A stretch of DNA of 50,006 nt from a bacterium (GCA_030689605.1 JAUYFT010000011.1:1-50006); one strand, 5' to 3'; positions 26,376-50,006 are shown, counted from the first letter of the stretch. Numbers and translations: made by a program. Notes: generated by a model from the letters alone, not told the origin.

Positions 26376-26417
26376 CCCCTCACCACTTTTTACCTCCAAA
26401 AAGTGGTGAGGGGTCAA
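26373..26417 (-). terminator. Long near-perfect hairpin (19-nt arms, about 17-18 bp) directly after the stop of the Ig/C39-like gene
   Basis: CAACCCCTCACCACTTTTT-ACCTCC-AAAAAGTGGTGAGGGGTC. There is only a weak U-tract on the minus strand, so terminator function is tentative. Confidence 0.4.
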
Positions 26418-26419
26418 GA

Positions 26420-28327: not shown

Positions 28328-28330
28328 AGC

Positions 28331-32745: not shown

Positions 32746-32749
32746 AGTG

Positions 32750-33922: not shown

Positions 33923-33928
33923 ACTGTT

Positions 33929-33937
33929 ATTATACCA
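33929..33937 (-). promoter_or_regulatory. Extended -10 element TGGTATAAT, 6 nt upstream of the pgk ATG (leaderless configuration)
   Basis: The minus strand reads TGGTATAAT-aacagt-ATG. Confidence 0.5.
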
Positions 33938-33961
33938 CAAAAATCACACTTTGGTGGCTAA

Positions 33962-36148: not shown

Positions 36149-37210
36149 CTACGGCGAAGCGAGTGCGAGCACCAGCGCAACAATTTCCTCGGGAGTTGCG
36201 GCGCCAGCAATGGTAACCAACTGCAACCGATCCAAGCTCTTCCCAACGAGGTCATCGAAGGTTGAATGGAAGCCGGTCGCGACGACCATTGGCTTCTTAT
36301 ACCGATACGCGAGTGCGACCTCGGCCAGCGTTCCGGCCCCACCAGGGAACACCACCAGTGCCTCGGTGCTGGGTATCCCTACGAATAGGTAGTCACCAAC
36401 ATTGATTGGCGTGTTTATCTCAATGGTGACGTAGGGATTGCAGGATCCAGGAATTGGCCCGGGTGTGCCAATAGTCTCACCACCAGCGTAGAGCGCACCG
36501 CGACTTGCAGCCTCCATGACACCGTCTGTACCACCGGTGACGACAATCGCACCTTGCTGAGCGAGCGCGTACCCTACAGCTTCGGCACACTGCAGCAAGC
36601 GTGCAGCGAGCGCTGGATCTTCGGGCAAATTCCCAGTGCTGGCACCGAGCACGCCAATACGCAAACGGCGTGGCGCAGTGACCATGTACCAGAACTGATG
36701 TTGCATGCCAGGCGTAAGGCTACAGGGTTGAAAAACACCCGTTTGGCGCATACCGAGGTTCTGATTTAGTGTGCGAATCCGAACGTTATCCTCACGCATA
36801 CGTGTCATAACCAGAACGCGCTTCGGTGTTTTCCGTATCTGCTCAAGGGCCTCGACTTTTAGCTGCCGAGCTACACCACGTTCTTGAGATTCAGGATCAA
36901 CAATTGTCTCCCAGATCCAAACGAAGTGTCCATGCGGAATATTGAGAATGAAGTTTCGGAGAGTTGTTGCACTTGCATGGCGTTCTGTAACTGCATCTAA
37001 CGACATGTCACTCCACCACGTAGCGCCGATAACTTTTCCATTATTCGTTGCTACGACGCAATGAACATTAGAAAAGCTCTTTTGCTCTTCCCAACGACGT
37101 TGCACTTCCGAAAACTTGAGCGTTTCCTTCCACGGTTCACCCGCGAATGCTCGCTGGTATGTATCGAGAATCTCGGGAAGATCTTCTGGAACGAATTTTC
37201 GAATAACCAT
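36149..37210 (-). CDS. Fusion protein: N-terminal GNAT acetyltransferase + C-terminal LOG/TIGR00725-type Rossmann (SLOG) domain
   Basis: The GNAT core is ..VVATNNGKVIGATWW...VDPESQERGVARQLK... The C-terminal half has TGGTDGVMEAASRGA and FPGGAGTLAEV, the GGxxGxM and PGGxGTxxE motifs of LOG-family proteins. SD GGAGGT precedes ATG 37210. Confidence 0.65.
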   Translation of the reverse strand: MVIRKFVPEDLPEILDTYQRAFAGEPWKETLKFSEVQRRWEEQKSFSNVHCVVATNNGKVIGATWWSDMSLDAVTERHASATTLRNFILNIPHGHFVWIWETIVDPESQERGVARQLKVEALEQIRKTPKRVLVMTRMREDNVRIRTLNQNLGMRQTGVFQPCSLTPGMQHQFWYMVTAPRRLRIGVLGASTGNLPEDPALAARLLQCAEAVGYALAQQGAIVVTGGTDGVMEAASRGALYAGGETIGTPGPIPGSCNPYVTIEINTPINVGDYLFVGIPSTEALVVFPGGAGTLAEVALAYRYKKPMVVATGFHSTFDDLVGKSLDRLQLVTIAGAATPEEIVALVLALASP

Positions 37211-37321
37211 GTTACCTCCATCTATGTTTGCTTGTTGTATTCTCCGTAACCTAACACACCGAAGTGCAGCGTCAAATGGGGTGGGTAAAATGCTAAGCGA
37301 ACTCCTTGGCAGTAGGTGAAG

Positions 37322-37349
37322 TTGACGCCCGCAACCTATGACATAGACT
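37322..37349 (+). promoter_or_regulatory. Possible promoter TTGACG-16-TAGACT for hutH
   Basis: TTGACG at 37322-37327 and TAGACT at 37344-37349, 28 nt before the ATG. Confidence 0.3.
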
Positions 37350-37377
37350 GCAAGTACCACATCTAAACCATGACGCT

Positions 37378-38919
37378 ATGCCTACCTACACGTTGAACGC
37401 AGGGCATGTACGCATTGAGGACATCGTACGCATCGCGCACGATCCTGCGGAGCACATCGCACTCGCGCCAGAAACACTCGCTGCAATTGAACGTTCGCGG
37501 GCAACGGTGAACGCCCTCACCGAGAAGCGAGCAGTCGTGTACGGCCTCACGACAGGTTTTGGCAAATTCAAAGATCGCTTCATCGATGGCGACCATATTG
37601 CGGAGCTGCAGGTGAACTTACTGCGCAGCCACTCGGTTGGCGTCGGTATGCCATTCCCGCTCCCCTGGGTGCGCGCCATGATGGTCATTCGCCTCAACTC
37701 GCTTGCCCGAGGGTTCTCTGGCGTACGTCCAGAATTGCTCAACCTCCTGGTGGGCATGCTGAATGCGAACGTCACACCTGAAGTACCGTCGAAAGGTTCA
37801 GTTGGCTCATCCGGCGACCTCGCTCCGCTCTCGCACATGGGGCTCGTGCTCATGGGTGAAGGTTTCGCTTGGTACAAGGGTGAGCGCCTCATTGGTGCCG
37901 AAGCCCTGAAGCGCGCCGGCTTGCAACCAATCCAGTTCGCCTCAAAGGAAGGACTCGCCTGGAACAACGGCACGTCGGTGCAGACTGGCGTGGGAACACT
38001 CGCCACGCACCTCGGAGTTCGGCTGACGAAGATTGCTGACATTGCCGCCGCGCTCTCTATGGAGGCGCACAACGGTCTCACCGCGGCGTACGACCCACGC
38101 CCGCACCAGCTCCGCGGGCATGAAGGTCAGATCGTGGCAGCTGCCAACATCCTGGAACTCCTCAAAGGCTCAACTTACATCAACAGCGGTACTGCAGCGA
38201 AGCGCGTGCAGGATGCCTACAGCCTACGTTGCGCCCCGCAGGTCCACGGTGCCACACGCGAAGCAATCCGCTACGCCGAGCACGTCATGAGTACGGAGGT
38301 GAACGCAGTCACCGATAACCCGCTCATCTTCGCCGATACCGCCGAAGCAATTTCCGCTGGGAACTTCCACGGCGAACCAGTCGCCATTGCCATGGATACG
38401 CTCGGCATTGCCGTTTCGGAACTCGCGAACATTTCCGAGCGGCGCACCGCGAAGCTCCTCGACTCGGCAACGAACGAGGGCTTGCCCATGTTCCTCATCC
38501 CGCCGGAACGCGGCGGGCTGCACAACGGCTACATGATTGCGCAGTACACCGCCGCCGCGCTCGTTTCAGAGAATAAGGTGCTCGCCCATCCCGCATCGGT
38601 CGACTCCATTCCAACGTCAGCCAACCAGGAAGACCACGTGAGCATGGGTACCATTGCGGCTCGCAAGGCCATGGAAATTGCGGGCAACGCAGTGGACGTC
38701 TTCGCGATCGAATTCATGTGCGCGACACAAGGTGTAGACCTACGCGAGAAAGCGCAGCTCGGCGTCGGGACGAGAGCAGCGTACGATGTCATTCGCGGCC
38801 GGGTGCCAATGCTCGATGGTGACCGCATCCTCGCGCCGGATATGCAAGCAATCGCCGAGCTCATCCGTGATGGCAGCATCGAAGCAGCCGTCGTGAAAGC
38901 TGGCGTGCAGCTGGGCTAA
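37378..38919 (+). CDS. hutH: Histidine ammonia-lyase (MIO-dependent aromatic amino acid lyase family)
   Basis: YGLTTGFGKF, LQVNLLRSHSVGVG (the Ser-His pair typical of HAL rather than TAL/PAL), and the MIO segment GSVGSSGDLAPLSH. 513 aa. Confidence 0.85.
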   Translation: MPTYTLNAGHVRIEDIVRIAHDPAEHIALAPETLAAIERSRATVNALTEKRAVVYGLTTGFGKFKDRFIDGDHIAELQVNLLRSHSVGVGMPFPLPWVRAMMVIRLNSLARGFSGVRPELLNLLVGMLNANVTPEVPSKGSVGSSGDLAPLSHMGLVLMGEGFAWYKGERLIGAEALKRAGLQPIQFASKEGLAWNNGTSVQTGVGTLATHLGVRLTKIADIAAALSMEAHNGLTAAYDPRPHQLRGHEGQIVAAANILELLKGSTYINSGTAAKRVQDAYSLRCAPQVHGATREAIRYAEHVMSTEVNAVTDNPLIFADTAEAISAGNFHGEPVAIAMDTLGIAVSELANISERRTAKLLDSATNEGLPMFLIPPERGGLHNGYMIAQYTAAALVSENKVLAHPASVDSIPTSANQEDHVSMGTIAARKAMEIAGNAVDVFAIEFMCATQGVDLREKAQLGVGTRAAYDVIRGRVPMLDGDRILAPDMQAIAELIRDGSIEAAVVKAGVQLG

Positions 38920-40001
38920 CGCTTGAAGCAGGCGGCGAACAGTTCTGCTGAGCCATAGCCAAGGCCTGGCGCATCTGGTGCGTGCATGCTCCCGCCTTGC
39001 ACGGCTGGGCCGAATGCTTTCGGATCGTCAATGAAGGTGAACGCGTTCAATGCCGTCGTGCGCACTGCGTGCGTGGCGGCGAAGTGCACGCCAGCGTACG
39101 TCCCCAGTGCGCCTTCAATCATAGAGCCAAGCATGTAGCCAGCGTTGTGCGCAGTGGCAGCATTTGCGAGTTCGTGCGCACCCCAAACCCCGCGAGACTT
39201 GGCCAGCTTAATGTTGAAGAGCTGCGCTGCGCCTGCGGTTGCTGCGGCGGCCGCATCTTCTGCAGTGTAGGTTGATTCGTCGAGCATGATTTGCATGCCC
39301 GTACGCTCATGCAACGTGCGGAAATCTGCTGGGGTACAGTTTGCAGGAAGTGGTTGCTCCACCCACGCCAAATTGGCGTCAGCGAATGTGGTTAACGCCT
39401 GTACTGCAGCGTCGACCGTCTTCCAACCCTGATTTGCATCCACGAAGAGTGTACGCTCTGGCCCAATCACTGCACGCACCGCTTGCAGGAGTTCATGCTC
39501 ACGGTCCACGTCCATGCCCACTTTCACTTTGAAAACTGTTATCCCCTGGTCAACGGCGGTCGCAACGAGTGCATTCGCCTGCGCCAAATCAACCATGGGA
39601 ATAGCAGCCTCTACAGGTACTGATTTTGCAGGACCGTAGTAGGCGTACACTGGCTTGCTCTCTTCTTGCCCCAGCGCGTCATGCAAGGCAACGTCAATGC
39701 CACAGGCCGCGGCGTACGCTGTCGGGATGATCGTAGCGAGAACCTTGCCCCACTGTTCGGGCTGCTGGTACTGCTGCCCAGCAATTACACCAGCTGCCTG
39801 CTGCCCAGCGGCAATGGTAGAAGCCTGCGTTTCACCTCGCGGTTCCCAGTACGCTGGGCACTCGCCGTACCCAACCACGCCAGCTTCGGTACTGACGCGC
39901 ACAATTGCATAGTCCAGCTGCACGAGCCGGACACCAGAGTACACGAACGGGTGCTTCAGCTTGTACGTCAAAGGCGCAACGTCGACACGGGTAATTTTCA
40001 T
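38916..40001 (-). CDS. Enolase-superfamily enzyme, muconate-lactonizing subgroup (dipeptide epimerase / N-acylamino-acid racemase-like)
   Basis: KxK motif FKVKVG, metal ligands DANQGW / WVEQP / MLDES, and the second catalytic Lys in FNIKLAKSRG. Its ATG overlaps the stop of the upstream M20 gene (ATGA). Confidence 0.75.
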   Translation of the reverse strand: MKITRVDVAPLTYKLKHPFVYSGVRLVQLDYAIVRVSTEAGVVGYGECPAYWEPRGETQASTIAAGQQAAGVIAGQQYQQPEQWGKVLATIIPTAYAAACGIDVALHDALGQEESKPVYAYYGPAKSVPVEAAIPMVDLAQANALVATAVDQGITVFKVKVGMDVDREHELLQAVRAVIGPERTLFVDANQGWKTVDAAVQALTTFADANLAWVEQPLPANCTPADFRTLHERTGMQIMLDESTYTAEDAAAAATAGAAQLFNIKLAKSRGVWGAHELANAATAHNAGYMLGSMIEGALGTYAGVHFAATHAVRTTALNAFTFIDDPKAFGPAVQGGSMHAPDAPGLGYGSAELFAACFKR

Positions 40002-41119
40002 AGATTGGGCAGGAGCAAGAATGTCCGGTAGAGTGCCACGCCTCGGTCTAACGCCGTGAGCGCAATGCTCTCATCAACTTGGTGGATCGTTGATGAATCG
40101 CCGGGTCCCAGGACGAAAACTCGGCCCCAGCGTGTGAACAGCGACGCTTCGGTCCAACCGGGTGCGTACATAATTTCTGCAGGTGCGCCGGTCTCCTTGC
40201 GGATAACCTGCAAGCAGTACTGCACCCACGCCTCACTACGAGCCGTGAAGAAACCATCGCCGCTGAATGGGAAGGTAACCTGAGCGCTGGCATCAACCCG
40301 CCGAACAAGTGCGCGCAGCGCACGCTTCTCCTCAGCGAGTTTTTCCTGCGGCACGAGGCGCCGATTCACCGCGAGCGTCGCCAACGGCGCAACGGTATTC
40401 ACGCCAACGCCACCGCTCATCGTGCCGTACGATAAGGTTGCCCGACCGAACGCTGGGTGCCGGCGCGCGTCAATGCGCTTCTCGTACACGCGTAAGGCTT
40501 GGAGAACTTTTGCCAATTTCAGGATTGCGTTCTCCTGGCCGTTCGTGGCGTACCGCACACGGCTTGCGTGCTTGCCGATACCGGTCGTGGTGATGCACGC
40601 GTCGAAGCAGGCCTTCTGCCCCAAGCGCACTCGGTTGTCGGTCGCTTCACCCACAATGATGGTTGCCGAACGTGCTGGCCGCTTCTGCGCGAGCAGTGCG
40701 CCACCAACAGCATGTCCTTCCTCGTCGCCATCGAGGAGGATAGTTACAGGGCGCTGGATACGCTTATGCGTCTCGGCGAACGCCGTAGTGAAAGCAGCAA
40801 TACTGCTCTTCATATCCGAAATCCCTAAGCCGTAGAGGCGTTTTCCCCTCCCAACGACTTTCACTGGCGGGGTCGCCCAGCTCCCATGGACATTCGCAGT
40901 ATCGGTGTGGCCAGAGAAGACTAGAGGCCGACCTGGAAGATTCTGACCGTACTCTGCCCGCACGTTCCACCGTCGTACACCGTCGCTCTGGTAGGCAGTC
41001 ATGCGCACGCGCGCACCCAAGCGAGCGTACGTCTGCGCCAGAACCTTCGCCACCTGTTGGTTCGAAATCTTCAACTGGCTATCGGTACCGACGAGCGTGC
41101 GGAGGAGAGGGATGAGCAT
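39998..41119 (-). CDS. M20-family metallo-amidohydrolase (ArgE/DapE/N-acyl-amino-acid deacylase-like), copy 1
   Basis: FSGHTDT, GLGISDMKS, LDGDEEG, VGEAT and a C-terminal ..STIHQVDE.. give the His/Asp/Glu/Glu/His metal-ligand pattern. ATG 41119 sits 7 nt after a TATACT box. Confidence 0.8.
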   Translation of the reverse strand: MLIPLLRTLVGTDSQLKISNQQVAKVLAQTYARLGARVRMTAYQSDGVRRWNVRAEYGQNLPGRPLVFSGHTDTANVHGSWATPPVKVVGRGKRLYGLGISDMKSSIAAFTTAFAETHKRIQRPVTILLDGDEEGHAVGGALLAQKRPARSATIIVGEATDNRVRLGQKACFDACITTTGIGKHASRVRYATNGQENAILKLAKVLQALRVYEKRIDARRHPAFGRATLSYGTMSGGVGVNTVAPLATLAVNRRLVPQEKLAEEKRALRALVRRVDASAQVTFPFSGDGFFTARSEAWVQYCLQVIRKETGAPAEIMYAPGWTEASLFTRWGRVFVLGPGDSSTIHQVDESIALTALDRGVALYRTFLLLPNL

Positions 41120-41142
41120 ATGCCCTAGTATACACTGCACTC

Positions 41143-41180
41143 AATAAGAAAACACCTCGTTCGGAACGGACGAGGTGTTC
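41143..41180 (-). terminator. Intrinsic terminator AACACCTCGT-loop-ACGAGGTGTT + UUUCUUAUU
   Basis: 10-bp stem at 41151-41179, with a U-rich tail on the minus strand. It lies 36 nt after the stop of the racemase-GNAT gene. Confidence 0.7.
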
Positions 41181-41215
41181 ATAAGGTGCTTTCGCAATAG
41201 AGCAGCTGGGCTGCG

Positions 41216-42706
41216 CTACTTAATCTTCTTGACAAGGAACAGTCGTGGATCAGGCATGTCGACGATTTCACCAGTCTCAGGTTTGAGCTTCTTGGAAATA
41301 GTCTCCTGCCGAACGCCATCGAGCTCGTGGTAGCCGCGGCTCTCGCGGTAGAGGTGTTGCGTCGCAGTGTTATCCACGGACGTGCGAACCACCACCGTGT
41401 CGAAACTATCCGGCAGCGCTTCGAGTCGCGCGTCAATGAGCTTATGGCTAAGATTGCGCCCACGATACGCTGGCGCCACGCCGAGCTCGGCCATGTAGTA
41501 GGACGACGCCACTGGTATGTACGCCGAAACATACGGGACGATATCCTCGTAGCGATCCACTGGAACCGCGCCACTGAAACCAACCACGGTGTCACCGTCC
41601 AACGCCAGGAACAGCAACCCTTGCGGGTCGGCAGCAATCTTGCGGAGGTCGGCAGCACCGTCTTCACTCTTGAAACGCTCGTTGTACGGAGGATCGTAGA
41701 ACACCCGAGCGTAGAGAGTACCGACAGCTTGCGCGTACGGCTCGAATGCCTCGGCCGAGGTAATGCGGTGAAGGCACACCGTATCGTCCAGCAAGCGATC
41801 GCCGACCTCCGCAGTGCCATCATCGTACAGCACTTCAATGGGACCGCTGATGCGCGCCCCAGCGAATTCCTTGCCGTCGTAGGCAACGGAAATGCTAATG
41901 GGTAAACCGCTCGGCTGCATCACCGAAAGGTTCACCGGGCCGCCGGCGTCAAGCGCGCACTTCACTCCTAACGCTGTTGTTCCCGTACCGCACGCTGTCT
42001 CGGCGTACATGGTGTTGGAATCCCGCACGAACACGTAGGGGTCAATAGCGTACTGACCATCGTGTTCCGTGTAGAAAATCACACCCGCCGCTTCGAGGTC
42101 GCGCAACTTCTCTTCGGTGAGAATCCGCTCAGCGTGCTGCATGCGTGCGTCGCGATTCAACCCCGCAATGCCGTCACTCTCCGGAATCAGCAGGTGGCTG
42201 ATGCCGTACAAGTGCACGAGCGTTGCGTCGAACGGCTTCCCGTTCACCGTGGGCTGGCGCTTCTCTGTGCAGGTCGCCTCAGGGCGCACAGGCATAGTGG
42301 CGAAGATGTCCAGGATGTGATTCTGGTCATCCAGCACGACTTCAGCATGGAGTACGCCATCGAAGCCCGAGACTTCCATTGGCACATCCAGACGATTCCA
42401 TGAACGCGTAATGTGCTCGAGGGCGAATGGATTCAATCCGACATCACCAGTAAGGAACGCCTTCGTGATGAGCATAACGGTTGATCGCGTGGCGTTGCCA
42501 CAGAACTCGCCACCCATCATCTGCAGGCGGCAAACCGTTTTGGGCAGCGTCGACAATTCCAAGTACCCTACCTGCTCGCCTTTCTCATCCTGCTTCAGGA
42601 TGACTTCTTTGGCGATTTCCCCGTGGTACTGCCGGGGAATCAGGTCGTGAACCAAGGCGGTATTGTTCCCGCCTGGTTTCACCATTGTGAAACGAATGAG
42701 ACCCAT
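41216..42706 (-). CDS. Fusion protein: N-terminal DapF-fold PLP-independent racemase/epimerase (CntK-like motifs) + C-terminal GNAT N-acyltransferase
   Basis: VKPGGNNTALV, MMGGEFCGNATRS (first catalytic Cys) and ETACGTGTTALG (second catalytic Cys) define the two-Cys DapF fold. The C-terminal ~170 aa (LLFLALDGDTVVGF...YYMAELGVAPAYRGRNLSHKLI) is a GNAT. SD GAAGGAGG precedes the ATG. Confidence 0.7.
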   Translation of the reverse strand: MGLIRFTMVKPGGNNTALVHDLIPRQYHGEIAKEVILKQDEKGEQVGYLELSTLPKTVCRLQMMGGEFCGNATRSTVMLITKAFLTGDVGLNPFALEHITRSWNRLDVPMEVSGFDGVLHAEVVLDDQNHILDIFATMPVRPEATCTEKRQPTVNGKPFDATLVHLYGISHLLIPESDGIAGLNRDARMQHAERILTEEKLRDLEAAGVIFYTEHDGQYAIDPYVFVRDSNTMYAETACGTGTTALGVKCALDAGGPVNLSVMQPSGLPISISVAYDGKEFAGARISGPIEVLYDDGTAEVGDRLLDDTVCLHRITSAEAFEPYAQAVGTLYARVFYDPPYNERFKSEDGAADLRKIAADPQGLLFLALDGDTVVGFSGAVPVDRYEDIVPYVSAYIPVASSYYMAELGVAPAYRGRNLSHKLIDARLEALPDSFDTVVVRTSVDNTATQHLYRESRGYHELDGVRQETISKKLKPETGEIVDMPDPRLFLVKKIK

Positions 42707-42945
42707 GGGTCCCTCCTTCGGGTTGCATGCATCGCGTACCCAATGTACGCGAAGCTTTCCGTTTTCAACGTACGTTTGGCATAAACGTCTGTTTCACCCA
42801 AGCCTAGCAGAGGGTCATGGGGTGTCAAACTCCTTCTCGTTTTGGAAATTTGCCAAAATGGAAACCCCATGGTAGGACAGTGAGGAAAAGCCAGCACTCA
42901 GCGGAGGGTTGGGAAATTGTCACTTTGAAAAAACAAGGAGAGAAC

Positions 42946-44187
42946 ATGCAGAAACTTACGGAGCCAGTGCTCCCATTGCTCCAGCAGCTCTGCGCGTTGC
43001 CATCATGGTTTGGAACTTTCAACGACCGTGCAGCCGACGAAGTTAGCTACGCGCAATTCGTTGAAGACTACCTCGCCACGCACGTGCCAACCCTCAAACT
43101 ATCCCGCGTACCACTCGAAGACGGTTCTGGACGGTACTCGGTTCTCGCGAAAACCCCTGGGCCAGACATTGAGCTCCTCGTTGCGGTGCACCTGGATACC
43201 GTGCTGCCTTCAACGCAGATCGATTCGTCTGGAGCATGGGTTGATAACTTCACTATCGGAGATCGGTATCACGATCAAACCTACCTCCGTTTAGGGGCAG
43301 CGGACAACAAAGGTGGTGCAGCGGCATTGCTCACTGCGCTTCAGAGCGTCACGCTGAAAAAGGTCGCTGCGCTTTTCTACGTCGATGAAGAGCGCTACTT
43401 CGCTGGCATGGAAGCGGTGCTCGCAGCCCAGCCATCCTGGGGTTGGAAACCGAAACGAGTGCTCATCATCGAGCCAACTGGTTTGGAAATTCGCAACACC
43501 CACCGTGGGTGCGTAGAATTCAAAGCCCGTGTTCAGGGCGCTTCTGCCCACGCGGCGTACCCAGAACTTGGCAAGCACGCATTCGAAGCATTCCTGAAGG
43601 CGTACACCGCTTTCAGGAATCGTATCGACAACGCTGACGCGGTGCGTCGATCCGTTCATCCGAACCAGCAACTCACGGCAGTGAACGTCGCGGGCATTAC
43701 CTGTGGCCAACGTGACGCCGACGCAATGGCGCTTCCGGGCAATGCGAAAACGAACTGCCTGACACCGGTACGGGTGGTACCGAACAAGAAAGCTGATTTC
43801 GTCGAGGTCGTATTCGATATCCGGCCTGGCGACCTAACGGCGAGTGCGAGCGACCTCACGAGACTCTTCACCGACTGTGTTGCAACGACGAATTGCACGG
43901 CCGACATTGTGAGCGTGGCGATCGATAAGGTTGGCATGAATACCAAGGCTATTGACTTCAGTGACCTTGGCGCAATTGTTGCCGACGTTACTGCTGCTAC
44001 ACCGAAATTCGCCTACATGAACGGCTACGGTGAAGGCGCAATGATCGCTCAACAGTGGGGCGTACCTGTTGCGTACTTTGGACCGAAGGGCGAAAACACG
44101 CATGAGTTTGGTGAGTGGGTGCTCATCCCATCACTGGATGTTGCGGCAGAGGCGTACGCTCGCTTGCTCTCGAGCTTCATCTCGTAA
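42946..44187 (+). CDS. M20-family metallo-amidohydrolase, copy 2 (divergently transcribed from the racemase-GNAT gene)
   Basis: VAVHLDTV, LGAADNKGG, YVDEERY, IIEPT and ..NTHEFGEWV. SD AAGGAGA precedes ATG 42946. Confidence 0.8.
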   Translation: MQKLTEPVLPLLQQLCALPSWFGTFNDRAADEVSYAQFVEDYLATHVPTLKLSRVPLEDGSGRYSVLAKTPGPDIELLVAVHLDTVLPSTQIDSSGAWVDNFTIGDRYHDQTYLRLGAADNKGGAAALLTALQSVTLKKVAALFYVDEERYFAGMEAVLAAQPSWGWKPKRVLIIEPTGLEIRNTHRGCVEFKARVQGASAHAAYPELGKHAFEAFLKAYTAFRNRIDNADAVRRSVHPNQQLTAVNVAGITCGQRDADAMALPGNAKTNCLTPVRVVPNKKADFVEVVFDIRPGDLTASASDLTRLFTDCVATTNCTADIVSVAIDKVGMNTKAIDFSDLGAIVADVTAATPKFAYMNGYGEGAMIAQQWGVPVAYFGPKGENTHEFGEWVLIPSLDVAAEAYARLLSSFIS

Positions 44188-44197
44188 TTTCATTCTT

Positions 44198-44229
44198 GGA
44201 CTGGCACGTACCGCCAGTCCTTTTTATTT
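44198..44229 (+). terminator. Intrinsic terminator GGACTGGC-N7-GCCAGTCC + TTTTTATTT
   Basis: 8-bp GC-rich stem plus T-run, 10 nt after the M20 stop. Near-identical to the terminator at 45094-45125. Confidence 0.75.
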
Positions 44230-44295
44230 GCCTTCTCACCGAGCAGCGAGTAAGCTGTTTATCGTTTCCAAGAACACCAACAGAGGAGGATACCT

Positions 44296-45087
44296 TTGAA
44301 AAGACCACGCTTGATCGTCTCCGACATCGATGGGGTAATGGCGATTGATGGGGAACTCGATGCGACAGTACTGCGTGCGCTGCACGCGCTCCAGAAACGT
44401 CGCGTGAAGTGCACGGTCGCTACAGGACGCGGGTACTTCCGGCTCCAGAAATGCCTGGGCAGTGCCTTCACCCCAAACTTTCCCATGATCCTGGAGAATG
44501 GGGGCAGGATATGCAAGGCCAATGGCAGCCCGCTGCTGGCTCGTCCAGTAGCGCCACGAACCTTCCCTATCGTCCGGAAGTTCATGTTCCCAAGGTACGT
44601 GCGGGGCGTAGACTTCTTCCAGCTCGAGGACAACAAGTACGTCGTCCTCGAGCACCCAGGAATGCAGACCTCCCCAGGGAAAGTATTCCTCGCCGAGAAG
44701 TTCGTTGCCGCGCGGTACGACAACGTCGATGCCTTCATGGCGCACGTCACCGCATCCCGCTGCTGCAAGCTCACGTTCTTCCCGAAGGATGAGAAAAAAA
44801 TCCCTTTCCCGAAGTGTGTGAATGCTTCTCGCAACGAGAGCTACGAGACAGTCATGCGTCGGCACGTGTCGAAGGGAGCGGCACTTCGCCAGCTCTGCGA
44901 AATGTCTGACATTCCCCTCTCCGAAACGCTCATTGCCGGCAACGACTACAACGACGTGAAGCTCTTCGAGCTCCCGGCGCGGTGGCGTATCGCCGTTGGG
45001 AATGACTGCCCTAAACTGCAAAAACGTGCCACCTGTGCAGTCGCGACGCCGACGGCATTCGGAGAGCTCTTGCAAACCTTCATCTAG
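44296..45087 (+). CDS. HAD-superfamily phosphatase, Cof/IIB type (TTG start)
   Basis: LIVSDIDGVM (motif I), VATGRG (motif II), IAGNDYNDVKLF (motif IV). SD GAGGAGGA lies 5 nt before TTG 44296. Confidence 0.8.
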   Translation: MKRPRLIVSDIDGVMAIDGELDATVLRALHALQKRRVKCTVATGRGYFRLQKCLGSAFTPNFPMILENGGRICKANGSPLLARPVAPRTFPIVRKFMFPRYVRGVDFFQLEDNKYVVLEHPGMQTSPGKVFLAEKFVAARYDNVDAFMAHVTASRCCKLTFFPKDEKKIPFPKCVNASRNESYETVMRRHVSKGAALRQLCEMSDIPLSETLIAGNDYNDVKLFELPARWRIAVGNDCPKLQKRATCAVATPTAFGELLQTFI

Positions 45088-45093
45088 CACCGA

Positions 45094-45125
45094 GGACTGG
45101 CCCGCTCGCCAGTCCTTTTCTATTT
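45094..45125 (+). terminator. Intrinsic terminator GGACTGGC-N6-GCCAGTCC + TTTTCTATTT
   Basis: Same stem sequence as the terminator at 44198-44229. It lies 6 nt after the HAD stop. Confidence 0.75.
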
Positions 45126-45216
45126 GACTAAACCCGGACTTCTGCTAGGATACCCCAAAGCTCGTTCCCAACCGAATACTAGGAAAACACGTGAATATAG
45201 TGAAAGGAGTCACCCC

Positions 45217-46614
45217 ATGGGTGCAGACAAGAAACTCATCAAGCCCACGCAGCCAAGTGGCGTGAACGACTACTTGCCGCAGGAAATGCTCCCGCGACAG
45301 AAGATGCTCGACGCCATTCGAACGGTCTTCGAACGCTTCGGCTTCGTCCCGCTCGAAACGTCATGCATGGAGCGTCTGGAAGTGCTCACTGGCGGCGATC
45401 CGTACTTCAAAAATGAAATCTACATCGCCCGCGGCACGTCCGAGCACATCCGCTCGCACGATGAGCACACGCGCGCGCTCCGCTTCGACCTCACCGTCCC
45501 GCTCGCACGCGTCGTTGCCGCGAACCCAGGCTTGCCCATGCCGTTCAAACGGTACCAGATGGGCAAAGTATTCCGTGGCGAGAAGGCACAGGCCGGACGC
45601 TACAACGAGTTCATGCAGTGCGACGTAGATACCGTCGGCACGTCCAGCATGGCCGCCGACGCGGAAATCGTCGCGATCATGTACGCGGTCATGCAGGCTC
45701 TCAAGGTGCCCAACGCCCGCACACGCGTGAACAACCGGAAGATTCTCAACGGCCTCTCGGCGTTCGCCGGTTTCTCAGCGGAGAAGAACGCTGACGTCCT
45801 GCGGGTCCTCGACCGGCAAGACAAGGTTGGCAAAACCAAAGTGCTCGACCTGCTCGAGAACGGCGATGCCACACTCGGCATCGAGAAGCTCCTCACCGTA
45901 GCCGAAGCGCAGCAAGTCGGGAAGTTCCTCGATCTCATCGCCGAGGGGAAAGAGCCGCTACTCGATGCAGTCGACGCGCTCATGGGGCACATCCCCATTG
46001 TCCGCGAAGGCACGCAGGAGCTCCGACAGGTCATCACGCACGTCCGGAACCTACGGGTACCGGAGTCGGCGTGGACGATCGATCTCTCCGTGGCGCGCGG
46101 CTTAGGTTACTACACTGGTCCGGTCTTCGAGACCATCAGCCTCGACCTCCCCAGCATTGGCAGCCTCTTCTCTGGTGGTCGGTATGACGACCTCGTCGCC
46201 CGATTCAGTCCGAACAGTTACCCTGCAACTGGAGCGTCAGTCGGTCTCGACCGGCTATTCACTGCGATGCAACAGCTCGGTTGTATTACGCCAGTAAGCA
46301 CCATGACGAACGTCGTCGTTGTGCCATTGGAAGATACGTCTGAAGTAAATGCAATGTGCGAGGAACTCGTCACGGAATTTCGTATGGCTGGTTTGAATGC
46401 TGAATTTCTCTTCACTTCTGGGACGGTGCGCGACCGTATTTCGCAAGCAGTGAAACGCGGTGCACCCCTAGGCGTACTTATTGGCTCTACAGAAGTCCAA
46501 AACCAATCACTCACTATTAAAGATTTCCGAACAAAAACACAGATAAATGTTCCCCTCCTTGGCACCCCGCCATGGAGTGGGGCTTTACAGGAAATCACAC
46601 GCATGCTAGGGTAA
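45217..46614 (+). CDS. hisS: Histidine--tRNA ligase (archaeal/eukaryote-like sequence type)
   Basis: RALRFDLTVPLAR, KRYQMGKVFRGEKAQAGRYNEFMQCDVD (motif 2), GGRYDDLV...ATGASVGLDRL (motif 3), and a C-terminal anticodon-binding domain. SD AAAGGAG precedes ATG 45217. Confidence 0.9.
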   Translation: MGADKKLIKPTQPSGVNDYLPQEMLPRQKMLDAIRTVFERFGFVPLETSCMERLEVLTGGDPYFKNEIYIARGTSEHIRSHDEHTRALRFDLTVPLARVVAANPGLPMPFKRYQMGKVFRGEKAQAGRYNEFMQCDVDTVGTSSMAADAEIVAIMYAVMQALKVPNARTRVNNRKILNGLSAFAGFSAEKNADVLRVLDRQDKVGKTKVLDLLENGDATLGIEKLLTVAEAQQVGKFLDLIAEGKEPLLDAVDALMGHIPIVREGTQELRQVITHVRNLRVPESAWTIDLSVARGLGYYTGPVFETISLDLPSIGSLFSGGRYDDLVARFSPNSYPATGASVGLDRLFTAMQQLGCITPVSTMTNVVVVPLEDTSEVNAMCEELVTEFRMAGLNAEFLFTSGTVRDRISQAVKRGAPLGVLIGSTEVQNQSLTIKDFRTKTQINVPLLGTPPWSGALQEITRMLG

Positions 46615-46631
46615 CTTACTAAAACAAAAGT

Positions 46632-46706
46632 GGGTACGTAGCTCAGCCCGGTTAGAGCATCTGACTGTGAATCAGAGGGTCGTGGGTTCAAATCCCATCG
46701 TACCCC
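46632..46706 (+). tRNA. tRNA-His (anticodon GTG at 46667-46669), discriminator C73, no genome-encoded G-1, CCA not encoded
   Basis: Hand-folded cloverleaf. Acceptor GGGTACG/CGTACCC, D arm GCTC/GAGC, anticodon stem TCTGA/TCAGA with loop CTGTGAA, T arm GTGGG-TTCAAAT-CCCAT. The base at -1 is T. Confidence 0.9.
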
Positions 46707-46718
46707 CAATCTTTTTTA

Positions 46719-46750
46719 GGGCCTGTACATCTGTACCGGTCCTTTTTTTA
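46719..46750 (+). terminator. Terminator-like hairpin GGCCTGTACA-TC-TGTACCGGTCC + T7 after tRNA-His
   Basis: Imperfect ~10-bp stem followed by TTTTTTT at 46743-46749. Confidence 0.55.
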
Positions 46751-47131
46751 TTTAACCCATATAAGTGCGGCCTTTGCACAAATCGTCACCGCATCGTACA
46801 GCGGCAGGGTAATATGCTCTTGCTGCAAGAAGAGCGGCAGTTCCGTGCAGCCGAGGACTATAGCTGAGGCGCCCTGCGACTGGAAGTCATTGCATATTGC
46901 TTGCAGCGCTTGCACATCAGCTGAGTTCTGCAGCCCTGCCATAACGTGCGTGATGACTTCGGTAATACTGTCTTGCTGTACCACTGTTAGGCTAATCGGT
47001 ACGGCACCCTGACCTTTCAGAGCGTCCACGTACAAGCCAGACTTCGCCGTCGTTTCAGAAGAGAGGACGCCAACCGTTGCATGACCAAAAGCCGCATGTC
47101 GAATTTTTCTACCGCTTCCTGTAATATTTAT
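46748..47131 (-). pseudogene. Aspartate/glutamate racemase family gene, 5'-truncated (C-terminal ~125 codons remain)
   Basis: Open frame ..HATVGVLSSETTAKSGLYVDALKGQG...ASAIVLGCTELPLFL carries the second-Cys GCTE motif. The N-terminal half with the first catalytic Cys is missing. The frame is closed by a stop at 47132-47134, where the sequence turns AT-rich. Confidence 0.6.
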
Positions 47132-47245
47132 TCAAAAAAATAAATTATAATCTTCATCGTCATTAAAAATCTGTACTCGAGCATTCGCTCTATTAAAAAT
47201 ATGATACACTTTCCCGCCAACATCCGTCCTTGTTACTCTTGACAC
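47132..47245 (-). mobile_element. Relic (37 codons) of an IS200/RayT-type Y1 (HUH) transposase N-terminus
   Basis: VSRVTRTDVGGKVYHIFNRANARVQIFNDDEDYNLFF* matches the conserved start of Y1_Tnp proteins (..g.YHv.nRgn.r..iF.dd.Dy..f). It terminates prematurely. Confidence 0.5.
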
Positions 47246-47301
47246 AAATTCATCGTATCATAAACCAAAATTCAAATAAATGGTGGCTGACCCCATTTTC
47301 T

Positions 47302-47921
47302 CTAAATTTTATTTTCCGATTTTATAATTGTCCAAACATCTTCGCCAATTTGATCTGGTTTTTTTGCTAAAATTGTTTTCATCCCCAATTTTTCAGCTGG
47401 TAAAAGATTATTCTCATTGTCATCGATAAATATACACTCGCCCGGTAGTACGAGAAGATCTTTGACAGCCAACTCATAAAATTCTTTTTGCGGTTTTACA
47501 AAACCAACTTCGCAGGACAAATAAACTTTATCGAAATAATCATAGCCATTACGTTCACGAGTAATATCGGCCATATAAGGGAAAGTGTCCGATAAAACTG
47601 CTGTAACATACCCATTGGTTTTCAAATTTTTAAGCATATTAACAACCTCTTCATAAAGTTCGAAATGTTCATTAAATAATTTGCGAGCCAGCTCCTTCAC
47701 ATTTACCGGCATTGATTTATTTATACGTTGCGAAAATTTCAACCAGAAACTATCTTCATTCAATAAACCCTTATCGAATTGTTCAAAAAGATCGCGAGTC
47801 ATTTTTTTGCATCTTCTTTTTCTTCCGCAGATAGACTAAATATTGACTCTACATCATCAAAAAAATACTTATTTATTGCTTTAACCACCCCATTATAATC
47901 AAATATAATTGCTTTTATCAT
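47302..47921 (-). pseudogene. HAD-IA hydrolase split by a frameshift in an A-run (N-terminal 40 codons 47921-47799, remainder 47802-47302)
   Basis: Hand translation upstream of the listed ORF gives MIKAIIFDYNGVVKAINKYFFDDVESIFSLSAEEKEDAKK* (HAD motif I) in another frame. The two frames meet at GCAAAAAAATG (47800-47810). The downstream part has VLSDT and FIDDNENN motifs. Confidence 0.6.
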
Positions 47922-47959
47922 AATAATAATTATAATTATTCTTTTGTATTGTAATTATA

Positions 47960-48236
47960 TTAATACTCTTTACATTTTTTAAGACAACTAATTATTTTAT
48001 CATTTTGTTCCGGTTTTCCAATCGTCAATCTCAGGGAATTTTCTTCTTCATAATATCGAGGGAATATTCGACATTGCTCTAAATAATTCTTCATTTTTGA
48101 AAGACTTCCATTTACCTTTATAAATAAAAATGTCTTCATATTCAAAAAAGGGAATATAAAAACAATTTTCAATCAGCCTGCCGATATAAGATTTACCTGC
48201 AGCTATCGCACCGACCAAAACAAATACGTCCTTCAT
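47960..48236 (-). pseudogene. Two overlapping gene fragments: a P-loop NTPase N-terminus (48236-48048) and a class II aminotransferase-like C-terminus (48172-47960)
   Basis: MKDVFVLVGAIAAGKSYIG (Walker A), preceded by SD AGGAGG. The other frame ends ..NSLRLTIGKPEQNDKIISCLKK, resembling HisC/CobD-type C-termini. Neither is full length. Confidence 0.4.
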
Positions 48237-48291
48237 TACAACCTCCTGTAAATATACAGTCTTTAGATTTATCGAGTTTTCAGAGAGTCGT

Positions 48292-48545
48292 TTGCCTGGC
48301 ATAAGGCCACGTTCTTGCGGCTTATGCAGAACGGTCGTTAGTGTGGGTTTGTGCCCCCTGGTTTACCACCTTAGCAGCAGGACGTCAACAGTGGAGGTGT
48401 GGGATAAAAAAACAACCTCTGCGAGGTTGCTTGCTCCTACCCACGAATATGGATTAGATCATTCTGTTCACGAGCACGTGCAGGCAACCTCGGGGGTGAG
48501 GTTGCGACGACGAATCGATGGTGACTGTAAGTCGTGAACGGTCAT
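48292..48545. other. GC-rich non-coding stretch with nested helices and two hairpins sharing the stem GCAACCTC/GAGGTTGC; candidate structured RNA or repeat elements
   Basis: Hairpins at 48299-48327, 48367-48399, 48413-48429 and 48484-48505. Long-range pairing GTGGGT (48343-48348) with ACCCAC (48439-48444). Direct repeat GAACGGTC at 48329 and 48536. The only ORF here (81 aa) looks non-protein-like. Confidence 0.3.
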
Positions 48546-48588
48546 ACAACAACAATAATTGAAATTCTGTACAATGCGTTTTGATCAT

Positions 48589-49761: not shown

Positions 49762-49925
49762 TGTAAAAGATGCAAACTTATGAAAACTGCTCAGGCAATG
49801 TACAGTTGTACGCTAGCATATTTTCAGCTGCAGCGCAGCTATCCCCTCTTGGGCGAACGTCTTACATAAGACCCACTGCCCAAACCCCATTCCGCCAGAC
49901 ACCTCAAAGCGGGTGCTTGCTTGAT

Positions 49926-50006
49926 TTACGCGTGCCGCAGATTGTAGAGACCTACCACCGTCTTGAAGATATCATTGTAATCGGAGAGGGTGCTCCTGAA
50001 TCGGTG
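49926..50006 (-). CDS. 3' end (26 codons) of an unidentified gene running off the window edge
   Basis: The minus-strand frame HRFRSTLSDYNDIFKTVVGLYNLRHA* is open to nt 50006. Too short to classify. Confidence 0.25.
   Translation of the reverse strand, partial: HRFRSTLSDYNDIFKTVVGLYNLRHA

Follow-up and report, generated by a model that had tools for sequence, protein, structure and literature searches.

The window, that is, the whole stretch of 50,006 nucleotides that was analysed, comes from a lineage of the Patescibacteria, tiny and host-dependent bacteria. ORF calling and profile searches located nine genes in the region under study and confirmed the open reading frames, coordinates and folds listed in a preliminary description of this DNA. 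Gene A (36149-37210, minus strand) encodes a fusion of a GNAT and a SLOG/LOG-like domain (PF18306, TIGR00725), gene B (37378-38919, plus strand) the histidine ammonia-lyase HutH (HAL; TIGR01225), gene C (38916-40001, minus strand) an MLE-subgroup racemase of the enolase superfamily (MR_MLE_N and MR_MLE_C), and gene D (M20a; 39998-41119, minus strand) an ArgE/DapE-type metallo-amidohydrolase (Peptidase_M20 and the M20 dimerisation domain). Gene E (41216-42706, minus strand) encodes a fusion of a two-cysteine racemase and a GNAT (CntK/HisR models, Acetyltransf_1), gene F (M20b; 42946-44187, plus strand) a second, diverged M20 amidohydrolase (Peptidase_M20), gene G (44296-45087, plus strand) a Cof-type HAD-IIB phosphatase (Hydrolase_3) and gene H (about 45214-46614, plus strand, with a possible start from 45124) the histidyl-tRNA synthetase hisS (HisRS; TIGR00442), and a tRNA-His(GTG) gene lies at 46632-46707 on the plus strand. 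It was confirmed that D and C overlap by ATGA, as noted in the earlier description, and these two genes are translationally coupled. A hairpin with a T-run is located between E and D. The core of the cluster consists of E, D and C.

Protein E is bifunctional, with the racemase at residues ~1-300 and a GNAT N-acyltransferase at residues ~310-496 (Acetyltransf_1, E-value 1.2e-10). By its profile matches and predicted structure, the N-terminal half is assigned to the PLP-independent two-cysteine racemases of the HisR/CntK (histidine racemase) type, and the fusion claimed in the preliminary description was thereby borne out. The racemase half scored 69.8 bits with the NCBIfam model for CntK (NF033599, cutoff 300) and 65.7 bits with that for HisR (NF052224, cutoff 400), both below the cutoffs, and it is a distant subfamily of HisR/CntK and not an equivalog. 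The Pfam profile search gave no match to this half at E <= 0.01, and hence none to DAP_epimerase; a match to PF26317 (CntK_N) in the precomputed annotation was counted toward its membership of the HisR/CntK family. When the AF2 model of E (pLDDT 92.8) was submitted to Foldseek, the top matches were CntK 6jis and HisR 9cr6 (E 1e-20, TM 0.77-0.80) and ranks 1-9 were all CntK/HisR (E 1e-20 to 2e-15, TMt 0.76-0.80), whereas proline racemase and DapF were weaker (~1e-14). An assignment of E as DapF was rejected, since histidine racemases match it best in both sequence and fold, and HisR, CntK and proline racemases all come ahead of the DapF structures in the ranking.

With HisR of Fusobacterium nucleatum and CntK of Staphylococcus aureus, E shares the DapF-like two-domain fold, the two catalytic cysteines and the conserved Asn and Glu residues, although the identity in the structural alignment is only 20-23%. 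The catalytic cysteines C69 and C239 are invariant among 25 homologues, as are N14, E44, E67 and E236, and the residues N14, E44, E67, C69, E236 and C239 align with N18, E49, E65, C67, E206 and C209 of HisR, respectively. A set of Asn and Glu residues contacting the amine and the imidazole was proposed to bind histidine in HisR, the gene of which sits in an 'orphan operon' (PMC11602996), and every one of these proposed residues is retained in E. Unlike HisR and CntK, E is fused to a GNAT and is found in the context of HisRS, HAL and amidases; as a further difference from the staphylopine cluster CntKLM, neither CntL (nicotianamine-synthase-like) nor CntM (opine dehydrogenase) was found in the cluster of the window or in the Pfam-annotated related loci. 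Fusions of the E type are common to many Patescibacteria.

For protein C, the catalytic set K158-x-K160, K265 and the metal ligands D188/E215/D241 is invariant. The profile of this clade had its best PDB match in 2p88 (216.6 bits), followed by the dipeptide epimerases 3jva (200 bits) and 1jpm (187 bits), while the single-sequence search gave 129 bits for 2p88, pointing to a low sequence identity. The NSAR/OSBS structures (1sja, 1r0m, 2zc8) scored 50-60 bits with C and 91-94 bits with the clade profile, and C is placed in the AEE/BC0371-like branch and not in NSAR/OSBS. An identity as OSBS (MenC), on which the earlier interpretation would have foundered, was rejected: the best MenC model (TIGR01928) gave 97.6 bits where the cutoff is 200.65, C sits beside 2p88 and the dipeptide epimerases, and no men genes occur among the annotated related loci. 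The entries 2p88/2p8b/2p8c we take to be Bacillus cereus BC0371, an N-succinyl-Arg/Lys racemase reportedly described by Song et al. in 2007. The substrates of BC0371 are N-acylated basic amino acids (PMC2948282). The motif DxD of the dipeptide epimerases (D321-x-D323 in YkfB, D-L-D in 3jva) aligns with A-L-N in C; all nine aligned members of the C clade have A-L-x, whereas the canonical homologues in the same alignment (A2) keep D-L-D, and 2p88, in which DxD is likewise lost, has E-L-T. This motif, after the eighth strand, is said by Lukk et al. 2012 to bind the N-terminal ammonium group of the dipeptide. Nearest to 2p88 and lacking DxD, C would not be a dipeptide epimerase, and the salvage of murein peptides, one of the options offered earlier, loses ground because of this absence. 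The clade differs from BC0371 in its low identity and in being a separate small group of Patescibacteria (~16 proteins at >=45% identity, all adjoining E homologues where the context is known) with a putative substrate. We infer that C, as a core gene, encodes an N-acyl-histidine racemase.

The two M20 proteins are assigned by sequence to the M20 ArgE/DapE superfamily and to nothing narrower. The best equivalog score of D was 152 bits (TIGR01910) and that of F was 78 bits, each against a cutoff of 217.6; the best PDB matches of D were DapE and ArgE (~70 bits), and F scored 43.6 bits with Peptidase_M20 and 47.7 bits with ArgE 7rsf. Both were thus rejected as DapE or ArgE, being far below all the equivalog cutoffs for these enzymes, and neither E nor the M20 proteins fell into the DapF/DapE clades, a placement that would, according to the earlier description, have been fatal to its proposal. 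The alignments contain the H/D/EE/E/H metal and catalytic motifs in D and the metal motifs in F, and F has a ribosome-binding site (AAGGAG) six bases before its ATG. D, a core gene, is a presumed N-acyl-L-histidine deacylase, and F is predicted to be an accessory deacylase. The succinylase branch of DAP/lysine synthesis (DapD, DapC, DapE, DapF) resembles the cluster in its acyl protection and deprotection, its M20 deacylase DapE and its DapF-fold epimerase, but differs in that E is not DapF by HMM or fold ranking, that D and F are under the DapE cutoffs, and that the cluster has histidine genes as neighbours and lacks DapD, DapC and other lysine genes.

At least seven other contigs carry the gene set again, in shuffled order and with protein identities of 37-89%, so the arrangement is not due to chance, and the co-localisation in related genomes that the preliminary description had called for was found. 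E, M20 and MLE genes are adjacent in the window and in L001, L002, L084, L085, L086 and L095, and the order E-M20a-MLE is kept in L001, L084 and L095. The F-type M20 gene is divergent from E in L001, L002, L085 and L086, is missing in L084 and L095, and also adjoins unfused racemases (L012, L024, L083). Across many phyla, 35/88 racemase loci have HisRS or HAL at a distance of no more than 5 kb (HAL in 18/88; HisRS in 24/88, and in 14/24 among the racemase-GNAT fusion loci), and the histidine link is strongly supported by these neighbourhood statistics. In 18 of the 24 loci with a racemase-GNAT fusion, the next gene downstream, on the same strand, encodes a VanX-like M15 peptidase; in the remaining six, which are the window's own clade, the MLE racemase and the M20 deacylase occur in its stead. 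Each of the 24 loci has exactly one of the two alternatives. Since the six loci form one clade, this complementarity reflects a single evolutionary event. The M15 proteins are very divergent (40-60 bits against cutoffs of 176-320). A GNAT was also fused, independently, at the racemase N-terminus (P0292, P0345, P0321, P0362), and the racemase is fused to M15 in P0335 and to M20 in P0094 and L059. Pairs or fusions of the racemase with M15 or M20 but without GNAT were found in L016, L019, L049, L058, L061, L071, L075, L012, L059 and P0335.

The HAL (648.6 bits with TIGR01225, over the cutoff of 539) and the HisRS (338 bits with TIGR00442, over the cutoff of 286.75) both consume L-histidine, and the latter is an ordinary Patescibacteria HisRS with thousands of homologues there at ~50% identity. 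The tRNA-His (ARAGORN; Rfam, 71.8 bits) has G1-C72, C73 and T as base -1, and consequently no genome-encoded G-1. HAL and HisRS are adjacent also in the close relative L089, which is without E, C, D, F and G, and the block is dispensable because it is absent there. The histidine-specific neighbours had been regarded as part of the system; the link to histidine stood, but HAL, HisRS and tRNA-His are pre-existing ancestral neighbours outside the inserted block. Likewise, the GNAT-LOG gene and the duplicated deacylase are present as described, but they are variable extras, the former being absent at this position in L001 and the latter in L095.

Taken together, we favour, with a probability of about 0.4, a histidine-specific module of inversion, acylation, re-inversion and deacylation, in which E would make N-acyl-D-histidine and C and M20 would return L-histidine; such a module would be a variant, for histidine, of the Geobacillus route of acylation, racemisation and deacylation. 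The interpretation given earlier was partly supported: the checks on DapF/DapE, on OSBS and on co-localisation all failed to overturn it, and its account of the neighbours and the extras was corrected. Among its options, an N-acyl-D-His-type metabolite gains most, because of the complementarity of M15 with MLE and M20. The chemistry that we infer, including the choice of acyl donor and acceptor and the stereospecificity of each step, would be as follows. The N-terminal domain of E would racemise free L-His to D-His by a two-thiol mechanism, as suggested by the fold, the conserved residues and the genomic context, and the fused GNAT would N-acylate D-His at once by using acyl-CoA, by which the conversion would become irreversible. 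Acetyl-CoA is the most likely donor, because PFOR and an ADP-forming acetyl-CoA synthetase are encoded 15 kb upstream and no pointer to succinyl-CoA was found in the window. C would then turn N-acyl-D-His into N-acyl-L-His via a Mg-stabilised enolate and two lysines, and D, plus F where present, would hydrolyse the latter to L-His, which could feed the neighbouring HisRS/tRNA-His and HAL. In most other Patescibacteria, one VanX-like M15 amidase would replace the last two steps, after which the racemase would run backwards. If so, histidine would be parked as N-acyl-D-histidine, out of reach of HisRS, HAL and ordinary peptidases and recoverable later, and this could serve as a reserve for a histidine auxotroph, as an imidazole pH buffer or osmolyte, or as an exported metal-binding compound. 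Such inversion, acyl capping and later recovery of histidine by a conserved gene set is probably a pathway not yet described. A synthase beside its own degradative branch is, however, a futile cycle unless regulated, and separate control is hinted at only by the hairpin with the T-run between E and D and by the divergent promoter region of E and F. Since the VanX-type M15 enzymes characterised so far act on dipeptides whose N-terminus is free, the shared substrate could be an Xaa-D-His dipeptide and not an N-acyl amino acid, although the M15 proteins found here are very divergent.

A less probable reading, and on balance an unlikely one, is that the genes serve salvage without any product synthesis, in that L-His for translation and HAL would be obtained from D-His, N-acyl-His or His-terminated amides of external origin. 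It amounts to the D-to-L route of Geobacillus kaustophilus, for which Sakai et al. 2006 reportedly described a GNAT N-succinyltransferase, an NSAR and an M20 L-desuccinylase: the GNAT would acylate imported D-His, C would invert it and M20 would free L-His, with the fused racemase as a parallel, reversible shortcut. Patescibacteria are generally amino-acid auxotrophs, both neighbouring enzymes draw on L-His, and the racemase-M15/M20 pairs and fusions without GNAT fit a logic of hydrolysis followed by inversion. The D-amino-acid conversion operons of Sakai 2006, cited in PMC12006748, provide a precedent for this reading as well as for the favoured module. The cluster and the Geobacillus route share the GNAT, the MLE-subgroup racemase and the M20 deacylase in one cluster as well as the sequence of acylation, racemisation of the N-acyl amino acid and deacylation; they differ in the racemase (AEE/BC0371-like here, NSAR/OSBS there), in the presumed substrate histidine and the probable donor acetyl-CoA, in the M15 amidase that replaces the racemase and M20 pair in sister lineages, and in that a cofactor-independent histidine racemase carries the acyltransferase as a fused domain, suggesting N-acyl-D-His synthesis from L-His and not only D-to-L salvage. 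Against salvage alone, L-His too would be drawn into the acyl-CoA-consuming loop by a free racemase covalently linked to a D-selective acyltransferase. The M15 amidase of the 18/24 fusion loci gives no inversion route together with GNAT, as nothing is won when one enantiomer is acylated and deacylated again. The GNAT-racemase fusion has also arisen two or more times, with the domains in either order, which speaks for the importance of the acylated product.

Considerably less probable is a recycling of dipeptides or murein peptides, by which C would epimerise L-Xaa-D/L-His or similar, D and F (M15 elsewhere) would be dipeptidases and the GNAT would be unrelated or regulatory. Dipeptide epimerases (3jva, 1jpm, 3q45) are the next-best PDB matches of C, VanX-type M15 and many M20 enzymes are dipeptidases, and TM0006 of T. 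maritima is a family member preferring a C-terminal His (PMC2948282), but the substitution of A-L-x for DxD throughout the C clade, the absence of murein-recycling genes from all the loci and the recurrent GNAT fusion, left unexplained, weigh against it. The adjacency of HAL, HisRS and tRNA-His without the cluster in L089 and the resemblance of the M20 proteins, among solved structures, to DapE and ArgE would suit a reading in which no dedicated system exists and genes for housekeeping or the lysine pathway (DapF-like, DapE/ArgE-like, HisRS) adjoin by chance. This is by far the least probable reading, and synteny and gene fusions already contradict it: the gene set persists from contig to contig in spite of rearrangements, the racemase is fused to GNAT, M15 and M20 and is of the HisR/CntK and not the DapF type, and the DapE/ArgE scores are far too low, with no other dap or arg genes nearby.

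As a functional analogy to the favoured N-acyl-D-histidine module, N-acetyl-L-histidine is synthesised in vertebrates by HisAT/NAT16 and hydrolysed by a specific acylase (PMC12219266, PMC4496688). In both, a GNAT uses or would use acetyl-CoA to form N-acetylhistidine, histidine is or would be regained by a dedicated amidohydrolase, and the purpose is or would be a non-proteinogenic pool of histidine, but the proteins and organisms are unrelated, and in vertebrates the L-enantiomer is cycled and no racemases take part.

The proposed module leaves A and G unaccounted for. A (PF18306, 85.8 bits; TIGR00725, 85.3 bits) carries the LOG-type motif PGGxGTxxE and a ribosome-binding site (GGAGGA) before its ATG, and its PDB matches are 1rcu, Moco carrier protein and LOG enzymes. 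It is peripheral and its membership of the cluster is uncertain: it is not present between HAL and RmlA in L001, and the cluster of L002 contains SLOG and GNAT as separate genes. A and E share the motif Y-x-x-[VI]-F-x-x-x-P-[WY]-x-E, and their GNAT domains belong to the same subfamily. G (Hydrolase_3, 77.4 bits) has no counterpart in L084, L085 and L089. The HAD gene keeps company with HisRS and the E racemase family, as it adjoins HisRS in L001, L002, L095 and the archaeal-labelled L087 and directly follows an unfused racemase in L023.

The cluster at 36149-46706 was examined by profile searches, and all the open reading frames of the preliminary description, which had proposed an amino-acid stereo-inversion or N-acyl-amino-acid system of histidine flavour, were found at the coordinates given here, with every domain assignment upheld. 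The minus strand carries a GNAT protein with a SLOG/LOG-like domain (A, 36149-37210; PF18306, 85.8 bits), an enolase-superfamily protein with MR_MLE_N and MR_MLE_C (C, 38916-40001), an M20 protein (D, 39998-41119) and a HisR/CntK-like racemase fused to Acetyltransf_1 (E, 41216-42706). The plus strand carries histidine ammonia-lyase (B, HAL, 37378-38919), which exceeds the hutH equivalog cutoff, a diverged M20 protein (F, 42946-44187), a Cof-type HAD protein (G, 44296-45087), HisRS (H, about 45214-46614), which exceeds the hisS cutoff, and tRNA-His with a GTG anticodon (46632-46707). The ATGA overlap from which translational coupling of D and C had been read was found; E and F are divergent with 239 bp between them, both with good ribosome-binding sites, and the GC content of the cluster (0.55-0.60) is the same as that of the remainder of the window. 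The intergenic stretch from E to D contains a GC-rich hairpin of 9 bp (41150-41185, minus strand) with a T-run, TTTCTTATT, after it; the hairpin was missed by the consensus scan because its loop exceeds 8 nt, and it may be a terminator or attenuator separating the expression of the racemase-GNAT gene from that of the M20-MLE pair. Rfam gave just the tRNA, and no T-box or other riboswitch control.

For the N-terminal half of protein E, no Pfam match was obtained at E <= 0.01 and hence no DAP_epimerase, and the sole NCBIfam matches were CntK (69.8 bits) and Fusobacterium HisR (65.7 bits), both scores lying under the equivalog cutoffs of these two histidine racemase models. The top PDB sequence matches were likewise HisR (9cr6, 9cr1) and CntK (6jis, 6l4l). 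An AlphaFold model built from 25 homologues (pLDDT 92.8, pTM 0.84) was searched by Foldseek, and the best nine structures were CntK and HisR (E 1e-20 to 2e-15, TM 0.76-0.80), with proline racemases and DapF about six orders of magnitude worse. The reading of the cluster as canonical DapF/DapE of the lysine pathway or as OSBS was ruled out by the HMM cutoffs and this fold ranking. Histidine racemases have been characterised in only three cases; in HisR, Cys67 and Cys209 are proposed as catalytic, Asn18 and Glu206 as ligands of the amine, and Glu65 (or Glu49) and Glu206 as ligands of the imidazole (PMC11602996). The counterparts in E (C69, C239, N14, E236, E67 and E44) are invariant in 25/25 aligned homologues. 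The GNAT half is a standard Acetyltransf_1 domain, and the CoA-binding R-x-x-G-x-G/A/S is present in the homologues, with N in place of the G in E of the window; a tRNA-dependent (Fem-like) role was disfavoured on account of this domain type and motif. A staphylopine-like metallophore cluster was rejected, as no CntL or CntM was found in the window or in the homologous loci L001, L002 and L084-L086. Neither the GNAT fusion nor this gene context was found in that part of the histidine-racemase literature which was searched for them.

An exhaustive HMMER search with the racemase gave 2026 representative clusters (50% identity) at E <= 1e-3, a number that falls to 868 at E <= 1e-10. The annotations of the homologues are limited to 'GNAT family N-acetyltransferase', 'hypothetical' and, from JGI, 'histidine racemase'. 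Many Patescibacteria carry the racemase-GNAT fusion, the named sources including Roizmanbacteria, Levybacteria, Gottesmanbacteria, Saccharibacteria, Peribacteria and Gracilibacteria. For the neighbourhood statistics, 80 loci from species-representative genomes were combined with contigs carrying closer homologues to give 88 non-redundant loci, all ORFs of which were scanned with profiles from the window proteins and their neighbours. Within 5 kb of the racemase, HisRS was present in 24/88 loci, HAL in 18/88 and either of them in 35/88; among the 24 fusion loci, the same distance held HisRS in 14 and HAL in 7, and a TrpR-like regulator lay within 3 kb in 11. By a rough estimate, a single-copy gene of a 1-Mb genome is expected by chance at such proximity in about 1% of loci, and the histidine link of the family is thus real and independent of its similarity to HisR and CntK.

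Other arrangements were recorded around the racemase. EamA-family transporter genes recur after the racemase-GNAT, M15 and HisRS genes (L009, L037 and L093, after HisRS; L084, 14228-15214; L086, 7236-7649); EamA proteins are exporters of amino-acid derivatives, and these neighbours are consistent with export or uptake of a product. At L031 (8236-13414) and L048 (Clostridia-labelled), the fusion lies between two gene groups, with a short, HisZ-like paralogue of HisRS on one side, together with an ORF of 211 aa that we take for a hisG-sized gene, and a full-length HisRS and an M15 gene on one or the other side; this arrangement would tie the fusion there to the regulation of histidine biosynthesis. 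P0369 (1105 aa), a class I aminoacyl-tRNA synthetase with tRNA-synt_1 and Anticodon_1, matches a racemase-like (CntK/DapF-fold) segment at residues 328-628, presumably roughly at the expected editing (CP1) insertion site, and a racemase fold within such an enzyme would be unusual.

The fusion is accompanied by one of two gene sets. Immediately after the fusion, three distant Patescibacteria loci with Pfam annotation have a Peptidase_M15 (VanX-like) gene. An M15 gene was found in 18 of the 24 fusion loci (16 directly downstream on the same strand, 2 at about 2 kb), and the other six are exactly those with a homologue of C (MLE) and M20. Both sets occur together in 0/24 loci and neither in 0/24 (Fisher p = 7e-6), a complementarity that counts as a single replacement event, the six loci with MLE being all of one clade. 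The relationship of the M15 proteins to D-Ala-D-Ala dipeptidases is remote (40-60 bits vs cutoffs of 176-320). Thus an amidase family cutting before a C-terminal D-residue can replace an N-acyl-amino-acid racemase together with an L-specific M20, and judged from these family assignments the simplest common substrate would be N-acyl-D-histidine; the literature searched gave no mention of N-acetyl- or N-succinyl-D-histidine. Fusions in reverse order (GNAT-racemase; P0292, P0345, P0321 and P0362), of racemase with M15 (P0335) and of racemase with M20 (P0094; L059) argue that the racemase works directly with an N-acyltransferase and an amidase. The archaeal-labelled L087, with an MLE 37% identical to C, has the order GNAT (E subfamily)-MLE-M15-aminotransferase and, in the vicinity, HAD and HisRS; the 285-aa gene upstream of this MLE, considered as a CntK relative, proved to be the GNAT.

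The gene set of the window, for which synteny in related genomes had been put forward as a check, was found to recur in several loci. With M20a and M20b denoting the homologues of D and F, the orders were as follows: HisRS-HAD-M20b, then E-M20a-MLE, then HAL in L001 (E 59% identical), where the GNAT-SLOG gene is absent between HAL and RmlA; HAL, MLE, M20a, E, HAD and HisRS, without M20b, in L095 (HisRS 85% identical); HisRS, HAL, M20b, E, MLE, a second HisRS, HAD, SLOG, PRTase-like, GNAT, M20a and GNAT in L002/L003 (E 39%); HAL (broken), HisRS, methyltransferase, E, M20a and MLE in L084 (E 38%); M20b, E, MLE, HisRS and HAL in L085 (E 39%); and M20b, E and MLE in L086 (E 40%). The invariant core is therefore E, MLE and one M20. 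L089 is a close relative (HisRS 85% identical; the same iPGM-iPGM-enolase-PGK-RmlA upstream) without E, C, D, F and G, from which it follows that HAL, HisRS and tRNA-His are ancestral neighbours and the racemase block is an accessory module. In place of E, C, D, F and G, L089 has three genes at 5930-7918, adjoining HAL and HisRS: one codes for an N-acyl-amino-acid deacylase of AstE/AspA type (70 bits with the aspartoacylase model), one for a TrpR-like regulator, and the third for a separate GNAT that belongs to the E subfamily and contains a Cys-rich insert. An acyltransferase/deacylase pair is thus present beside the histidine genes even where the racemase block is missing, and the trio is possibly a racemase-free version of an N-acyl-histidine cycle.

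Protein C has the MLE-subgroup catalytic set (K158-x-K160, K265, D188/E215/D241). Its top PDB match was 2p88/2p8b/2p8c (129 bits by single sequence, 216.6 bits by clade profile), 2p88 being, as we assume, B. cereus BC0371; the clade profile next matched the dipeptide epimerases 3jva (200) and 1jpm (187), with NSAR/OSBS structures at about 91-94. BC0371 is an N-succinyl-Arg racemase that groups with Ala-Glu epimerases without three of their typical residues (PMC2948282). C scored under the cutoffs of all OSBS, muconate cycloisomerase, DgcA and AEE equivalogs. Its clade has few members, with about 16 proteins at >=45% identity. The organism belongs to the Patescibacteria (CPR); Patescibacteria or Parcubacteria-group names are borne by a 69%-identical homologue of C and by the HisRS homologues. 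D and F keep the M20 metal-binding and catalytic motifs, and their closest solved structures are DapE and ArgE, with every equivalog cutoff far above their scores; by sequence, they are predicted to be N-acyl-amino-acid or dipeptide amidohydrolases.

The most coherent reading is a four-step model, in which the racemase domain of E would convert L-His to D-His, its GNAT domain would trap D-His as N-acyl-D-His, C would invert this to N-acyl-L-His, and an M20 would free L-His for HisRS and HAL. The acyl donor is probably acetyl-CoA, given the PFOR (20196-21947) and ADP-forming acetyl-CoA synthetase (22250-24304) genes nearby. In sister lineages, M15 would free D-His and the racemase would turn it back to L-His, the net result being a reversible, energy-driven pool of N-acyl-D-histidine. 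Such a pool would be formally like the Geobacillus pathway as summarised in a secondary source (Sakai 2006, via PMC12006748), and it also recalls the vertebrate N-acetyl-L-histidine cycle (PMC4496688, PMC12219266). Folds, conserved residues, neighbourhood statistics, fusions and complementary distribution were observed; all substrates of this model, its acyl donor, the stereospecificities and the physiological purpose are our inferences. The main weakness of the model is the risk of a futile cycle, as the genes for making the compound and those for recovering histidine from it are neighbours. Among the rivals, chance juxtaposition is contradicted by the data. Recycling of dipeptides would suit the ranking of dipeptide epimerases next for the clade of C. 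The DxD motif (D321-x-D323 in YkfB, D-L-D in 3jva) is kept in the canonical dipeptide-epimerase homologues of the alignment; at this position C has A-L-N, nine of nine clade members A-L-x and 2p88 E-L-T, and this speaks against a substrate whose N-terminal ammonium group is free, i.e. a dipeptide. Pure salvage of exogenous D-His or N-acyl-His is the other rival.

With the N-acyl-D-histidine pool as the preferred reading, we tentatively propose, at a probability of about 0.35, that Patescibacteria widely make and recycle N-acetyl-D-histidine or a close N-acyl analogue, the maker being the HisRS-adjacent racemase-acyltransferase and recovery being by a D-specific M15 or by an N-acyl-amino-acid racemase with an L-specific M20. 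For these ultra-small, auxotrophic symbionts, the compound would keep histidine in a protected store, act as a buffer through its imidazole or, once secreted, bind metal. If the proposal is true, M15 vs racemase and M20 would be a textbook non-orthologous displacement, a natural example of one D-specific amidase swapped for a racemase and an L-specific amidase. Through its fusions and neighbourhoods, a large, unannotated racemase family of about 2000 clusters gains testable partners (GNAT, M15, M20 and MLE) and a candidate substrate, N-acyl-D-His, and the enolase-superfamily N-acyl-amino-acid racemase pathway would be extended to a basic amino acid and a new phylum. In Patescibacteria, whose tiny genomes contain few genes recognisable as metabolic, the investment of several conserved genes next to HisRS in the stereochemistry of histidine points to a need or product that has gone unrecognised. 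The fusion is present in MAGs of Saccharibacteria, some of which grow in co-culture, so the metabolite would be directly searchable if a cultivated strain has the gene.

An orthogonal HisRS/tRNA-His pair dedicated to the cluster, suggested by the presence of two such pairs in L002 and by the missing encoded G-1 in the window, was rejected on two grounds: the cluster-free L089 has the same kind of G-1-less tRNA-His together with a HisRS of 85% identity, and the HisRS of the window has homologues by the thousand in Patescibacteria, at about 50% identity. The tRNA-His genes of the window lineage have no genome-encoded G-1, the base at -1 being T or C. G1-C72/C73 was found in the window, L001 (262-339), L089 (11402-11478) and the second copy in L002 (14452-14526), A73 in L085 (11400-11475), and G1-U72/A73 in two tandem copies of L084 (3840-4021), the last resembling the G-1-less alphaproteobacterial type (PMC3064791). 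The HisRS motif-2 loop is FRGEKAQAGRYNEF in the window vs FRHERPQKGRYRQF in E. coli. In the window lineage, G-1 would be either added after transcription or dispensable for recognition. L002 has two HisRS/tRNA-His pairs inside its racemase cluster (5312-6807 and 13004-14526), one with a PRK12420-like HisRS and a canonical tRNA-His (G-1, C73, CCA) and the other with a window-type HisRS and a G-1-less tRNA-His, and the two may be mutually orthogonal.

The GNATs of A, E, L089 and L087 have Y-x-x-[VI]-F-x-x-x-P-[WY]-x-E in common, and the SLOG half of A has the LOG-type PGGxGTxxE motif; a literature search on LDcluster4/TIGR00725 found nothing. The HAD gene adjoins HisRS in L001, L002, L095 and L087, and directly follows an unfused racemase once (L023). 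At 14640-17209 of L002, HAD, SLOG (LDcluster4) and PRTase-like genes stand in a row within the cluster, and in P0302 (654 aa) a PRTase-like region is joined to a racemase domain; these hint at a ribosyl- or nucleotide-linked step, and this may also account for the presence in the window of A, with its GNAT-SLOG fusion, and of the HAD protein G.

Upstream of the cluster, two tandem iPGM paralogues (28331-29935 and 29928-31580), enolase (31486-32745) and an ORF read as PGK (32750-33940) follow the acetyl-CoA genes, and 20196-33940 is fermentative core metabolism, including lower glycolysis, in one block; in L089, a PGK gene follows enolase at the matching position and the tandem iPGM pair is likewise present. 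Directly past tRNA-His, GC falls from about 0.57 to 0.39-0.47 (46708-50006), and this segment, which looks like foreign DNA integrated at the tRNA gene, carries a fragment (46748-47035) corresponding to the C-terminal half of an Asp/Glu racemase, a HAD hydrolase (47302-47802) and a DIT1/PvcA-like protein of the isonitrile-synthase family (48589-49761).
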